The translations under genes and the position numbers were made by a program. Below, piece after piece: positions 6,482 through 12,177 of a DNA stretch of 47,443 bases; position 1 is the stretch's first letter; every line of letters starts with the position of its first letter. Source of the stretch: an uncultured Lachnospiraceae bacterium (GTDB lineage: Bacteria > Bacillota > Clostridia > UBA1381); assembly GCA_964561265.1 (NCBI GenBank), contig CAZLOX010000002.1, positions 1 through 47,443 of the forward strand, given 5' to 3'. Below the pieces are notes generated by a model. It was not told the DNA's origin. It worked only from the letters and a program-made list of their open reading frames with translations, and made no database searches.

Positions 6482-7681
6482 TTATCTGTCAAGAAAATAC
6501 GACATCAGAGTATAGCCCTCCGCTATGTATTTTCCTGTTTTTTCAGCGTTTTTCTCGTTGTACGCAAGCTGAGAGCCGTTTTCCCTGCGGCTGTCGTATA
6601 TAACATACGGAACAGGGTCGGAAACGTGCGTTTTAAGGCTGAGAGGTGTCGGGTGGTCCGGCATAATAAGCATTTTATAATCCGTACCTTTGAGATTTTC
6701 GCGTAAAAATCCCACAACCTTTTCATCTATAAGCTCTATCGACTTTATCTTGTTGTCGACTTCACCCCTGTGTCCGCACTCGTCCGGCGCTTCCATATGA
6801 ATATACACAAAATCACTGTCTTTCAGCGAATCAAGAGCCGCTTTTGCTTTTCCGTCAAAGTTGGTGTCAACATTTCCTGTTGCGCCTTCAACGTCAATGC
6901 TGTTCATATCGGCGCATTTAGCGATGCCCTTTATAAGGTCAACCGCCGAAATAACACTTGCTTTAAGATTGAATTTGGATTCAAATGTATCAAGCATAGG
7001 CTTTGAACCCTCGCCCCATACCCATATTGAAGTGGCGGGATGTTTGCCGTTTTCTATTCTTTTTTTATTGACGGGATGATTTTTAAATATCTTCTCGCTT
7101 TTTTTCATCATATCCAATATGATATCCGCGCCTTCGCCTTTGGGAAGATAATCGGTTATTTTTCTGTCCGATATATCATGCGGCGGAGTAAGGGTAACAT
7201 TCAATGAACCGCCTTCCCATACCATCAGATGACGGTAGCTGACTCCGCTGTAAAAATTTATCATATCCGATGAAAGCTCCGCCTGCACTGCCGCTATAAG
7301 TTCAGCCGCCTCCTGCGTGGATATTTCATCGCTTGAATAATCCAGCATGGTTTTGTCGGCATAATTTTCCTCATCGGACAATGTTACAAGATTGCATCTG
7401 AAAGTAACGTCATTATCCTTTAACGGCACGCCTATGCTTGCCGCTTCAAGAGGGGAACGGCCGGTATAGTATTTGTCTGCCTTATATCCCATAACCGACA
7501 AGTTAGCGACATCGCTGCCGGGTTTTATGCCGTCGGGAACAGTCTTGACAAGTCCGAGTTCGCCGTGGGCGGACATATAATCTATATTTGGCTTTTCCGC
7601 AACGTCAAGCGGGGTTTTTCCGCCGAGACTTTCCACAGGATAATCTGCCATACCGTCGCCCAATATTACAATGTACTTCAT
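6482..7681 (-). CDS. apgM: Cofactor-independent phosphoglycerate mutase, ApgM type (metalloenzyme superfamily)
   Basis: N-terminus reads MKYIVILGDGMADYP...GKTPL, followed by GSDVANLSVMGY and then HMEAPDECGH. Confidence 0.75.
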   Translation of the reverse strand: MKYIVILGDGMADYPVESLGGKTPLDVAEKPNIDYMSAHGELGLVKTVPDGIKPGSDVANLSVMGYKADKYYTGRSPLEAASIGVPLKDNDVTFRCNLVTLSDEENYADKTMLDYSSDEISTQEAAELIAAVQAELSSDMINFYSGVSYRHLMVWEGGSLNVTLTPPHDISDRKITDYLPKGEGADIILDMMKKSEKIFKNHPVNKKRIENGKHPATSIWVWGEGSKPMLDTFESKFNLKASVISAVDLIKGIAKCADMNSIDVEGATGNVDTNFDGKAKAALDSLKDSDFVYIHMEAPDECGHRGEVDNKIKSIELIDEKVVGFLRENLKGTDYKMLIMPDHPTPLSLKTHVSDPVPYVIYDSRRENGSQLAYNEKNAEKTGKYIAEGYTLMSYFLDR

Positions 7682-7714
7682 ATATTTTACCTCCGAATAT
7701 TATTTTATATTTGC

Positions 7715-8581
7715 TTAAATAACAGGCGTTTTTATTCTGTAAAACGCCGCAAGTGTGCCTTCTCCGGTATGAGTGCCTATAATAGGCCCGATTTCACCGC
7801 GCATGGTAAGGCGCGCGTTTTCTTTCTCAAGAAGCTGCGCAAATTCCGCGCTCATTTTTTCATCGGACGCGACAATCATAAATTCATTTTTTTCAGCGTC
7901 AAAATTCGGGTCAGCCTTGATTTTTTCAAGCAGTTTTTTCGGAATTTTCTTTTTGCCTCTGAATTTGTCGATTGATTCTATAAGCCCTTTTCTTATTGAA
8001 AGCACCGGCTTTATATCTAAAAGCGTTCCGATTGTCATAACGGTTTTGCTTATTCTTCCGCCCTTCTGTAGATAGGTCAGATCGTTCACAACAAAAGCGA
8101 CATCCCAGCTTTTCATATATTCTTCGCATAAAGTCAGGATTTCATCCGCCGTTTTGCCCTCTTTTGCCAGATGTGACGCGTATACCGCCGTCTGAGCGAT
8201 ATGCACTGTGAAAGATTTTGTATCCACAATGCGGATATCAGCGTTCGGATATTCATTTGCGATAATATCATTTTTCACAAGATTGAGAGTGGAATACTGT
8301 CCGCTTGCTTTTGACGATATGGTAAACACGATCACTGAGTCATAATTTTTTGCTGATTCAAGCAATGTATCGTGCATTGTCATATACGGCGTCTGCGCTG
8401 TTGTCGGAATTTCCTTTGAGGATTTCAGAAGCGCGTAAAATTCCTTGTTTGTTATTTCAGTCCATGTATTGTAAGCCCTGTCGTTGAACACGCTTATTAT
8501 CGGCAGTACTGAAATATCATATTTTTCAGCGGTTTCATGCGATATATCGCTGCTTGTGTCAACTATTATTTTTATATTCAT
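7715..8581 (-). CDS. DegV family fatty-acid-binding protein
   Basis: Starts MNIKIIVDTSSDI. Family motifs TAQTP and SSKASGQY are present, and the length (288 aa) is typical. AAAGGAG SD sits 7 nt upstream of the ATG 8579-8581. No stop codon separates it from trmL upstream. Confidence 0.85.
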   Translation of the reverse strand: MNIKIIVDTSSDISHETAEKYDISVLPIISVFNDRAYNTWTEITNKEFYALLKSSKEIPTTAQTPYMTMHDTLLESAKNYDSVIVFTISSKASGQYSTLNLVKNDIIANEYPNADIRIVDTKSFTVHIAQTAVYASHLAKEGKTADEILTLCEEYMKSWDVAFVVNDLTYLQKGGRISKTVMTIGTLLDIKPVLSIRKGLIESIDKFRGKKKIPKKLLEKIKADPNFDAEKNEFMIVASDEKMSAEFAQLLEKENARLTMRGEIGPIIGTHTGEGTLAAFYRIKTPVI

Positions 8582-9097
8582 AGTATTCTCCTTTCCTTTC
8601 CTTTCATTCCAGTCATACTGTGTTAAAGCACCGCGCTGCTGCAGATTTTCAAATCCCGTCTGTCTGAGAGCCTCATACACCACAATGGCAGCGGAATTTG
8701 AAAGGTTAAGGCTGCGCGCCTCGCTTATCATAGGTATCCGTATACAGTTTTCTTTATTCTCAAACAAAAGGTCCTCGGGCAGTCCTTTTGTTTCCTTGCC
8801 GAATAATATGTAATCGCCGTCTTTAAATTCCACGTCGGAATAATTGCGGAGTGATTTTGTGCTTGCGTAGAAAAATCTTTTGTCTTTGTTTTTATTAAAA
8901 AAATCGTCAAGATCATCATAATACTGAACTCCGAGAAGATGCCAGTAATCCAGTCCGGCGCGTTTGAGTTTTTTATCGTCTATTTCAAACCCCATAGGTT
9001 TAACGATATGGAGCCGCGAACCGGTCGCCGCGCAGGTCCGCGCTATATTTCCGGTATTCTGCGGTATCTGCGGTTCCACAAGAACTATATTAAACAT
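8582..9097 (-). CDS. trmL: tRNA (cytidine/uridine(34)-2'-O)-methyltransferase TrmL (SpoU/TrmH family); no stop codon of its own in this sequence
   Basis: Contains MFNIVLVEPQIPQNTGNIARTCAATG...LHIVKP and the C-terminal knot motif IPM...RSLNLSNSAAIVVYEA. Start is the ATG 9095-9097 after an AGGAAATA SD. The reading frame runs in frame into degV. Confidence 0.85.
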
Positions 9098-9349
9098 AAG
9101 TATTTCCTTTCTTATTACAATGCAGAGAAACAATAATATATTACATTATACAATATTAAGAAAAATTTTTCAATAGGAACAGGAGAATTTAATCAGAAAT
9201 TTTTTATTACATTAAATCGGTGTTTTCATAAAAAAATGTAAACGCGATGCGGAATTTAAAAAAAATATACAAAATAACTTGATATTTAATAAAAAAGAGT
9301 ATATAATATAAGTTAAATAAATATGTAATTATTTTTAGGAGAGGATTTT

Positions 9350-10384: not shown

Positions 10385-10505
10385 TCATATTGGTTATTCT
10401 GGATTTTTGTTAAAATTGATGAAATTGAAAAAAGCACTTGATTTTTATAATATAATATGGTAAAATAAAATCGTATTATCATTAAATTTTATGGAGGTGA
10501 AAATT

Positions 10506-10769
10506 GTGCCTAATATTAAATCAGCGAAAAAAAGAGTTAAGGTAACAAAGAAAAAGACTCTTATCAATCAAATGCACAAAACAGCTTTGAAAACTGCTGT
10601 AAAGAAGGCTGAAGCAGCTATCGCGTCAGGTGATAAGGAAGCAAGCAAAGCTGCGTTTAACTATGCTGTAAAGAAACTTGATCAGAGCGTATCACATGGC
10701 ATTCTTCACAAGAACGCTGCATCGAGAAAAAAATCACAGCTTGCTCTTAAATTAGCTAAATTAGGTTAA
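10506..10769 (+). CDS. rpsT: 30S ribosomal protein S20
   Basis: The S20 N-terminus PNIKSAKKRVKV is present. I prefer the GTG 10506 start because GGAGGTGA lies at 10493-10500. The ATG of the ORF track (10491) would put that SD inside the ORF. Confidence 0.9.
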   Translation: MPNIKSAKKRVKVTKKKTLINQMHKTALKTAVKKAEAAIASGDKEASKAAFNYAVKKLDQSVSHGILHKNAASRKKSQLALKLAKLG

Positions 10770-10796
10770 TTTATCTGATTGACTTGAAGAAAATTT

Positions 10797-10829
10797 CCGG
10801 ATATTCCATTGTGAATATCCGGTTTTTTT
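10797..10829 (+). terminator. Intrinsic terminator of rpsT
   Basis: 10-bp stem CCGGATATTC / GAATATCCGG with a 6-nt loop, followed by T7. Confidence 0.85.
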
Positions 10830-10872
10830 AAATTAGTTAATAAGAATTTACCGGAAAAATTTTTTTTATTGC

Positions 10873-10901
10873 TTGACAGCATATATAATTTATGCTATAA
10901 T
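10873..10901 (+). promoter_or_regulatory. Sigma-A-type promoter of the DAHP synthase leader
   Basis: TTGACA (10873-10878), 17-nt spacer, TATAAT (10896-10901). Confidence 0.65.
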
Positions 10902-10934
10902 TGTTTTGTAAAATGAATGAAAGGAATAAAAATC

Positions 10935-11033
10935 ATGAATAATATGATTCGGACAGCCGAATACTTTTATTGCTTTAGCTTTAGTGACTTTTATTACGCT
11001 AAGGTTTTTTTGCCGTCCGGATGTATTTGCTGA
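10935..11033 (+). CDS. Candidate aromatic-rich leader peptide (32 aa), not in the ORF track
   Basis: ATG 10935 is preceded by AGGA 9 nt upstream. Translation is MNNMIRTAEYFYCFSFSDFYYAKVFLPSGCIC, ending at TGA 11031-11033. Eight of the 12 residues at positions 10-21 are Phe or Tyr. Confidence 0.55.
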   Translation: MNNMIRTAEYFYCFSFSDFYYAKVFLPSGCIC

Positions 11034-11060
11034 TTTATATAATATCATATAGATATTACA

Positions 11061-11090
11061 GCGGTAATCGGATGGATTACCGCTTTTTTA
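11061..11090 (+). terminator. Leader (attenuator) terminator upstream of DAHP synthase
   Basis: 9-bp stem GCGGTAATC / GATTACCGC with a 5-nt loop, followed by TTTTTTA. It lies 83 nt upstream of the DAHP synthase start codon. Confidence 0.7.
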
Positions 11091-11172
11091 TTTGTTTTGA
11101 CAGCTATCGCTGCATAATAAATATTTGCAGCGTATAACATAAAAATAATTATTTTCAAAGGAGATTAAAATT

Positions 11173-12177
11173 ATGGTAATTATATTGAAATCAACGGCAA
11201 CAAAATCGGATGAAGAAGCTGTAATAAAGCAGATAAGCGATATGGGATTCTCGCCTGTGCATATTCAGGGTGAACATTCCGCTATAATAGGCGTTGTAGG
11301 CGACACATCCAAGATCAACGAGAGCGTTTTTCTCTCAAATGACGCGATCCGCGATGTAAAAAGAATTTCAGAACCGTATAAACTGGCAAACCGCAAAGTA
11401 CATCCCGAACCAAGTGTTTTTGATATTTCGGGAAGAAAAGTCGGAGAGGGATATTTCTCGGTTATGGCCGGTCCGTGTTCGGTGGAAACGCATGATCAGC
11501 TTTGCAGTGTGGCCGAATCGGTGAAAAAAAGCGGAGCCGCATTTCTGCGCGGCGGCGCGTTCAAACCGCGCACATCTCCATACGCGTTTCAGGGACTTGG
11601 CGTTGACGGACTGAAACTGCTGGTTGAAGCGAAACAGGAAACAGGTCTGCCTATCGTTACGGAGATTATGAATCCAAAGGATCTGCCTTTATTTGAAGAT
11701 GTGGATATTATTCAGGTCGGCGCGAGAAATATGCAGAATTTTGAACTTTTAAAAGAACTGGGATATGTAAATAAGCCGATACTTCTGAAACGCGGTCTTG
11801 CCAGCACTATACAGGAATGGGTTATGAGCGCCGAATATATTATGTCGGGCGGAAACGAGCAGGTAATATTCTGTGAACGCGGTATAAGAACTTATGAAAC
11901 ATTTACAAGAAATACTCTTGATTTGTCCGCTGTTAAGAAAATCTCTCATCTGCCGGTAATCATTGATCCGAGCCACGCTACCGGAATACCGTGGATGGTT
12001 AAGCCTCTTGCAAAAGCGGCTGTGGCAGTAGGCGCGGACGGCATTATGATAGAGGTTCATAACAATCCTGCAAAGGCATTGTGCGACGGTTCGCAGTCGC
12101 TTACTCCGGCGCAGTTTGACGATGTGATGGATACTATAAAAAGATATGCTGAATTTGAAGGGAAAATGCTGGATTAA
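11173..12177 (+). CDS. aroF: 3-deoxy-7-phosphoheptulonate (DAHP) synthase, type I-beta, with N-terminal ferredoxin-like regulatory domain
   Basis: A ~65-aa N-terminal ACT/FL-like domain (MVIILKS...GVVGD) precedes the catalytic core. Core motifs include [26 protein letters not shown] and GIMIEVH. AAAGGAGA SD is present. Confidence 0.9.

Follow-up and report, generated by a model that had tools for sequence, protein, structure and literature searches.

The proteobacterial leaders represented by pheL-pheA of Escherichia coli (Rfam Phe_leader), trpL, hisL, thrL and ilvL combine a Shine-Dalgarno sequence (SD) with a short open reading frame (ORF) in which codons for the end product form a run. Four RNA segments give rise to the helices 1:2, 2:3 and 3:4, the last of which is an intrinsic terminator, and the regulatory codons are located where a ribosome halted on them masks segment 1. 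Here we report a leader of this design upstream of the aroF-type DAHP-synthase gene of an uncultured Lachnospiraceae bacterium, carried on a stretch of 47,443 nucleotides (assembly GCA_964561265.1, contig CAZLOX010000002.1) that we call the window and to which all positions refer. The leader is most probably a trpL/pheL-type ribosome-mediated attenuator set by the charging of tRNA-Phe and tRNA-Tyr. A preliminary description of the locus had made this its central claim, which is now supported by recurrent leaders upstream of orthologous genes, by covarying helices and by the geometry of the regulatory codons.

Like thrL, which reads Thr and Ile, and like ilvL, the aroF leader would be multivalent and sense more than one amino acid. 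It differs from the proteobacterial leaders in resembling none of the Rfam leader families, whether by sequence or by covariance model, in being longer in Clostridia (~20-50 codons) and in a stop codon usually located beyond segment 2. Unlike pheL, it would control DAHP synthase, the entry step, and not pheA, it mixes Phe and Tyr codons, and its host belongs to the Clostridia. In E. coli, the DAHP-synthase genes are under the TyrR and TrpR repressors. The N-terminal domain of the window enzyme is a ferredoxin-like regulatory domain (PF18152), and DAHP synthases with such a domain, of the Thermotoga maritima type, are feedback-inhibited by Tyr and Phe; the Phe and Tyr codons of the leader fit these inhibitors.

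Among Firmicutes, the leu/phe leader of Lactococcus is another leader-peptide attenuator. Leader-peptide attenuators of his genes are known in the B. cereus group, Peptostreptococcaceae and Erysipelotrichales (PMC9413887), those of hisS and hisZ in bacilli (PMC2965389), and a Leu-rich ilv leader in S. aureus (PMC5794164). The aroF leader would share with the his and ilv leaders a ribosome-sensed terminator/antiterminator switch in place of the usual T-box or repressor, and differs from them in that they serve other amino acids and target genes, mostly in narrow taxa. Our literature search found no description of an aroF leader in Clostridia, the closest published analogue being uORFC-13-1, reported by the Breaker laboratory in 2021. 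It is a predicted upstream ORF (uORF) with promoter, ribosome-binding site, start codon and U-rich Phe codons, placed directly upstream of an intrinsic terminator and exclusively 5' of aroF, for which the authors propose a sensing of the speed of Phe incorporation (PMC8632094). Its 24 representatives come from Acholeplasma and environmental sequences only, and at least one Phe is coded, with Tyr unmentioned (PMC8632094). Going by the published description, the window leader shares its layout, with Phe codons in a uORF and a terminator between this uORF and aroF. With these his, ilv and Acholeplasma aroF precedents, and with the many Clostridia families that carry the leader, the earlier view of the mechanism as unusual for this lineage was overstated.

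The T-box leaders (RF00230) of aromatic genes occupy the same position, act through a terminator/antiterminator output and take tRNA charging as input, all of which the aroF leader would share. They differ in binding uncharged tRNA directly, without an ORF and with a conserved T-box sequence and specifier loop. A T-box was considered for the window leader and rejected: RF00230 gives no match, and neither a T-box sequence nor a specifier loop is present. In a covariance search of the whole window with Rfam 15, none of the 4227 families, leader families and T-box included, reaches its gathering score, and at E<10 the region 10700-11250 returns chance matches only, the best of which (L20_leader, 20.5 bits against a threshold of 58.7) involves the terminator part alone. 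The same search detects a T-box of 115 bits at a related locus (L052:442-699), where it stands before the orthologous DAHP-synthase gene (start 775) in place of a leader peptide. With this positive control, the absence of a T-box asserted earlier for the window holds. The T-box of L052 also indicates that the same gene is under different tRNA-charging sensors in different Clostridia.

In the window, the leader peptide has Tyr at positions 10, 12, 20 and 21 and Phe at 11, 14, 16, 19 and 25, the last encoded at 11007-11009, so that 8 of residues 10-21 are aromatic. Its ORF ranks first for aromatic density among the 656 short ORFs (15-70 aa) of the window. An alternative in-frame ATG at 10917 has no SD. 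The peptide is hydrophobic, ends in C-I-C and matches no protein family of Pfam or NCBIfam.

Comparable leaders recur upstream of DAHP-synthase relatives. We gathered 80 genome and 80 metagenome loci carrying such relatives at 57-72% identity, of which the labelled ones are nearly all Clostridia. Of 78 upstream regions (77 genome loci and the window), 47 contain on the sense strand a short ORF in which 12 consecutive residues include at least 7 aromatic ones. The reverse complement gives 2 of 78, shuffled sequences 5 of 390, and the other intergenic gaps of the same loci 1 of 54, that is ~1-3% in controls as opposed to at least 60% upstream of the orthologues. When genome and metagenome loci with at least 200 nt upstream are taken together, an F/Y-rich short ORF (at least 6 of 12) is present in 101 of 148, an intrinsic terminator separates it from the gene in 93 of these 101, and 88 of the 93 have an SD-like motif before the start codon. 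The comparison of orthologues recommended in the preliminary description thus recovers the short ORF despite nucleotide divergence. The leader peptides contain 16.7% Phe, 13.2% Tyr and 0.7% Trp.

The family spans Oscillospiraceae/Ruminococcaceae, Lachnospiraceae, Clostridium, Anaerovoracaceae and others. Named carriers are Marasmitruncus massiliensis, Clostridium tyrobutyricum ATCC 25755 and Ruminococcus sp. zg-924, and further ones belong to Candidatus Fimenecus, Emergencia, Agathobacter, Anaerovoracaceae, Lachnospiraceae and Oscillospiraceae. In five loci (L016, L024, L027, L036 and L064, including Clostridium and Cellulosilyticum records), a Trp recurs within the aromatic run, as in FSWGYYYFSAGY and FSFIFWGFYFSAGY, which hints that these leaders may sense Trp besides Phe and Tyr. 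At two other loci (L126:269-444 and L127:269-444), an F/Y leader precedes a PheA-like gene of 336 aa (454-1464), followed by DAHP synthase (1501). The product of this gene looks like a chorismate mutase/prephenate dehydratase, and the arrangement suggests that the leader controls a pheA-aroF operon in some lineages.

When 30 leaders are aligned with MAFFT and without reference to a structure (alignment A2), conserved blocks appear besides the aromatic codons: segment 1 with the consensus UUUUGCAGCUGAA, segment 2 with UUUUGCUGYAAAA, and both terminator arms. In helix 1:2, 74% of the alignment cells are paired and 12 of 15 pairs changed on both sides, a single pair occurring as GC in 12 leaders, AU in 10 and GU in 4. 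Helix 3:4 has 85% of its cells paired, and two-sided changes affect 11 of its 13 pairs; jointly, the two helices reach 78.5%, as opposed to 34-51% in slid controls. Helix 2:3, in which segment 2 meets the terminator loop and the upper part of the 5' arm, is paired in 83% of cells (30-53% in slid controls), with 7 of 9 pairs changed on both sides. Terminator loops are seldom conserved. Those of the main family (GYGAAA) and of the sub-group of the window (CCGGA) are, because helix 2:3 uses the loop. Within this sub-group, the conserved loop (UCGGAUG, UCCGGAUA and CCGGAG in L163, L164 and the window, 11068-11074) is complementary to GUCCGGA of segment 2 and marks the antiterminator contact point.

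A covariance model built from A2 was searched against the window and 166 loci (~940 kb) with a cut-off of E<=0.01. It matches 59 leaders, 29 of them outside the training set, and all 59 matches share the strand of the gene and precede either DAHP synthase itself or a pheA-like gene followed by it, with no other match in the ~940 kb. Helix 2:3, which is outside the model, is paired at 63% in the 25 unseen leaders of the model alignment, compared with 33-51%.

Among 43 leaders, the codons that follow segment 1 specify an aromatic residue in 42, 39, 43 and 40 cases at the first four positions, with frequent F/Y interchange and with TAT/TAC or TTT/TTC variation. Such changes argue for selection on the meaning of the codons and not on pairing. 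The core of segment 1 is in frame with the aromatic ORF in all 30 leaders, and that of segment 2 is distributed over frames 0, 1 and 2 (16, 8 and 6 leaders), 5 of the 30 having it past the stop codon, as would be expected of an RNA element and not of a peptide element. Judging from these patterns, the 5' part of the leader is selected as codons and its 3' part as RNA.

Among the closest relatives, two ENA contigs (L161 and L162) hold the same locus with a 100% identical leader, and therefore bring no covariation at the nucleotide level; the usable homologues, at 70-75% DAHP-synthase identity, came from a protein search. Homologous leaders are found in L164 and L163 (MNLLLTAEFTYYYFSSFCFAKVFCRPEKYS and MSLTFTAKFTYYYFSAFNRAKAFCRPEKNKPR, enzymes 74-75% identical) and in L170 and L172 (70-71%), and a homologous leader peptide in L066; those that can be aligned in this range include MNLLLTAEFTYYYFSSFCFAKVF... 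and MSLTFTAKFTYYYF.... The string UUUUGCCGUCCGGA is shared unchanged by the window, L163 and L164, and is read V-F-L-P-S-G in the window, V-F-C-R-P-E in L164 and A-F-C-R-P-E in L163. The frame is shifted by one base in the two relatives relative to the window, which leaves the RNA intact. As read from their sequences, both also have a TTGACA-17-TAAAAT promoter at the equivalent place.

In the window, segment 1 directly adjoins the first aromatic codon. Its partner is the part UUUUGCCGUCCGGAU of segment 2 (11008-11022), and helix 1:2 pairs 10947-10957 with 11012-11022 at 10 of 11 positions, extending to a long hairpin of -25.7 kcal/mol. Other parts of segment 2, CCGUCCGG, UAUU and GCUG (11013-11032), are the partners of segment 3 in helix 2:3 (11013-11020/11068-11075, 11024-11027/11063-11066 and 11029-11032/11059-11062), which encloses the AT hairpin in a structure of -19.4 kcal/mol in the fold of the nascent transcript before the terminator 3' arm. 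The AT hairpin brings segment 2 next to segment 3, which pairs either with segment 2, as an antiterminator, or with segment 4, as the terminator. The leader has a fold z-score of -4.4. In the nascent transcript, the terminator 5' arm is sequestered by segment 2 to ~85%; a ribosome placed on the stop codon abolishes this pairing, and the sequestration decreases to 55%. If the ribosome footprint is assumed to be -15 to +13 nt, most of segment 2 is masked by a ribosome at the stop codon (11016-11044), and one stalled at Y10-F14 would cover segment 1.

The preliminary description had listed the promoter TTGACA-17-TATAAT, an SD-preceded ORF of 32 codons at 10935-11033, four Tyr and five Phe codons with 8 aromatic residues at positions 10-21, an AT hairpin and a terminator with T6, and all of them are present as described, the counts being exact and the promoter scoring 12/12. 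It had also suggested folding as a check for mutually exclusive structures, and the helices 1:2, 2:3 and 3:4 are of this nature. Its antiterminator proved to be another one: the pairing proposed between ATTACGCT and the terminator 5' arm (10993-11000/11060-11068) yields only -6.0 kcal/mol. None of the constrained minimum-free-energy folds contains it, and inspection by eye shows no conservation of it in the closest relatives. This pairing was rejected for being weak and unconserved, and we take the antiterminator to be 11013-11032/11059-11075.

On this basis, the switch would operate as follows. The leader would be translated while RNA polymerase proceeds from a start near 10908. With ample Phe and Tyr, the ribosome would pass the aromatic codons and segment 2 and reach the stop at 11031; segment 2 would then be covered by the ribosome or re-paired with segment 1, leaving segment 3 free for segment 4, and the terminator would form and end transcription at ~11090. 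When Phe-tRNA or Tyr-tRNA is scarce, the ribosome would stall at the first aromatic codons, from 10962 onward, and its footprint (~15 nt upstream of the A site) would mask segment 1. Segment 2 (11013-11032) could then pair with the newly made segment 3 (11059-11075), so that no terminator would form and transcription would read through into aroF. Without translation, helix 1:2 would form, followed by the terminator. The coordinates of all elements are given in Table 1.

Table 1. Elements of the aroF leader and the downstream gene in the window.
Feature	Position	Strand	Basis or remarks
Sigma-70-type promoter, TTGACA-17-TATAAT	10873..10901	+	score 12/12, with TG extension
Shine-Dalgarno sequence AAAGGAA	10921..10927	+	core AAGGA at 10922-10926, 8 nt before the leader ATG
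Leader ORF, 32 codons and stop, peptide MNNMIRTAEYFYCFSFSDFYYAKVFLPSGCIC	10935..11033	+	ATG 10935, TGA 11031-11033
Segment 1, AUUCGGACAGCCGAA, codons I-R-T-A-E, 5' strand of the 1:2 anti-antiterminator helix	10947..10961	+	alignment A2, columns 43-57
Regulatory codon run Y10 F11 Y12 C F14 S F16 S D F19 Y20 Y21	10962..10997	+	leader translation
Segment 2, overlapping the last codons and the stop codon	11008..11032	+	folds, alignment
AT hairpin UAAUAUC-AUAUA-GAUAUUA	11040..11058	+	window folds; nested in the antiterminator
Segment 3, terminator 5' arm and loop, CAGCGGUAAUCGGAUGG	11059..11075	+	nascent-transcript folds
Intrinsic terminator, 10-bp stem AGCGGUAAUC / GAUUACCGCU, 5-nt loop, U6	11060..11090	+	-15.3 kcal/mol; as DNA, AGCGGTAATC/GATTACCGCT at 11060-11084 and TTTTTT at 11085-11090
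Segment 4	11075..11084	+	terminator 3' arm
DAHP synthase, aroF type (regulated gene)	11173..12177	+	PF00793 1.8e-75; PF18152 3.8e-18

The stretch 10873-11090 lies between rpsT (10491-10769), which has its own terminator at 10797-10822, and the DAHP-synthase gene. On the two ENA contigs with the same locus (L161:3001 and L162:1501), the called start of DAHP synthase lies 9 nt 5' of the ATG at 11173, giving 337 instead of 334 aa. This upstream start is an ATT codon (window 11164-11175), and GGAG at 11160-11163 suits the ATG at 11173 better. No other leader-like short ORF with a convincing run of one amino acid emerged from a scan of the window. One short ORF at 7671-7718 (+), MYFIYFTSEYYFIFA, has 7 aromatic residues in 12 and lies antisense in the gap between the minus-strand genes 6482-7681 and 7715-9133. 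It has no downstream gene on the same strand and is regarded as a chance occurrence.

Several points weigh against the aroF leader being such an attenuator. Ribosome stalling, the size of the footprint, the timing of polymerase and ribosome, the physiological response and termination at ~11090 are all inferred from the sequence. In equilibrium folds of the full leader, the terminator has a probability of at least 0.87 at every simulated ribosome position, and antitermination must then be kinetic, as in classical attenuators; these simulations cannot tell ribosome positions apart, and it is the folding of the nascent transcript that is informative. The stop codon of the family lies at a median of ~21 nt beyond the core of segment 2, which places the terminating ribosome off the 2:3-pairing part in most members and would make termination rely on the re-forming of helix 1:2. 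Alignment-free duplex tests on 86 leaders are significant and weak per locus (mean z ~-0.65), and the comparison of stalled and stop positions, biased by the masking of sequence near the terminator, was given little weight. The loci L081-L084 and L168, next-closest in the genome and metagenome scans at 72% identity, have no leader. Bacillota are moreover classed among the bacteria with runaway transcription, in which the polymerase outruns the ribosomes (PMC13323073), and a switch timed by the ribosome would there need pausing.

The attenuator could also be bypassed by a promoter-like site, TTGACA-17-AATATT (10/12, window 11097-11125), situated between the terminator and aroF. A hairpin GCUGCA-N11-UGCAGC at 11109-11131, which overlaps it, repeats the core motifs of segments 1 and 2 of the family and is not conserved in L163 and L164. 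The region between terminator and aroF (11085-11185) is without significant structure (fold z-score -1.17). The whole site, 11097-11131, could be a weak bypass promoter or the remnant of a duplicated attenuator.

A promoter at this place would suit an independent small gene, for an aromatic micro-protein or a small RNA, upstream of an aroF transcribed from 11097-11125. Such a gene would account for the consensus promoter, the strong terminator and the hydrophobic peptide with its C-I-C end, and we nevertheless judge it very improbable. The internal promoter-like site is absent in L163 and L164, where 39-60 nt separate the terminator from the gene, and matches of this kind are frequent in the AT-rich stretch (13 found, 7.1 expected). 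The peptide belongs to no protein family and is unconserved outside the aromatic run and the pairing segments, its length, N-terminus and C-terminus being variable; segment 2 is kept in three frames, at times past the stop; and the unit invariably shares the strand of aroF and immediately precedes aroF or the pheA-aroF pair. Mere chance, by which AT-rich intergenic DNA would yield an ORF rich in TTT and TAT beside an ordinary terminator, draws on the frequency of these triplets in such DNA, on the 32% G+C of the region 10920-11089 (41.5% for the window) and on two further short ORFs of the window that reach 7 aromatic residues in 12. Its probability is close to negligible in view of the rates in controls and of covariation and covariance-model matches confined to the leader position.

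The conserved and covarying alternative helices, together with the fold z-score, are equally what a riboswitch or a T-box would display, and T-boxes are common for aromatic genes in Firmicutes, as the orthologue in L052 illustrates. A switch of RNA only, binding a ligand, tRNA or protein (a T-box variant, a riboswitch or a TRAP/PyrR-like target) with an incidental, untranslated ORF, is nonetheless quite unlikely. Besides the negative Rfam search, ATG and SD are kept in 88 of 93 leaders, and F/Y swaps and synonymous changes leave four codons aromatic. The helices and the aromatic codons explain nearly every conserved position; neither a conserved pocket of unpaired bases nor an element resembling a specifier is present, and the window leader has just three irregularly spaced (G/U)AG triplets, far from a TRAP site. 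Arrest peptides control downstream genes, and TnaC responds to Trp; the recurrence of a (T/A)AEY-F-Y-F-S-F-like motif would be in keeping with a nascent aromatic peptide that arrests the ribosome in response to free Phe/Tyr or another cue, tRNA charging not being read. Its polarity would be wrong, as plentiful Phe/Tyr would turn a biosynthetic gene on. The AAE motif is explained as segment 1, covarying with segment 2, and the aromatic positions swap F and Y and vary in number, which suits the counting of codons better than a defined arrest sequence. We therefore see little room for such an arrest, and an attenuator read by tRNA charging is the explanation that we retain.

At leaderless loci, other elements stand before the same gene. 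In L011, L017, L042, L067 and L077, a palindrome of ~ACTTTAAAGT overlies the -10 element, ~60-110 nt 5' of DAHP synthase, and in L081-L084 and L168/L169 the palindrome TTGACATAxGTCAA is located at -35. These palindromes look like repressor operators. Across lineages, the control of DAHP synthase is a mosaic of leader, T-box and apparent operators.

DAHP synthase is the committed step of aromatic synthesis, and how gut Clostridia (Oscillospiraceae, Lachnospiraceae, Clostridium) control it is largely uncharted. The recurrent leader with its Phe/Tyr codons and terminator switch alternates by lineage with T-boxes and apparent repressor operators. In effect, the aroF leader is a large new family of a textbook kind of regulator, widespread in gut Clostridia. 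The element is missing from Rfam 15, Pfam and NCBIfam; describing the family would improve the annotation of gut-microbiome genomes and would keep such short ORFs from being called hypothetical proteins or from being overlooked. The leader could also be used as a Phe/Tyr-responsive expression element in the engineering of Clostridia.

Going further, the window leader may be the founding example of a large undescribed Phe- and Tyr-sensing family that serves as the main control of shikimate entry across Clostridia (~2/3 of the sampled loci), a generalization that we advance tentatively and consider rather doubtful at this breadth. Some members have a conserved Trp codon and may respond to Trp as well as to Phe and Tyr. 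If the switch operates as proposed, RNA polymerase and the leading ribosome would have to be kinetically coordinated over ~120 nt in a phylum classed as uncoupled (PMC13323073). Ribosome-timed attenuation is deemed rare in Firmicutes, and a widespread family would imply either programmed pausing or an uncoupling that is not general. The family would then constitute a natural and widespread reporter of the coordination between transcription and translation in anaerobic Firmicutes.

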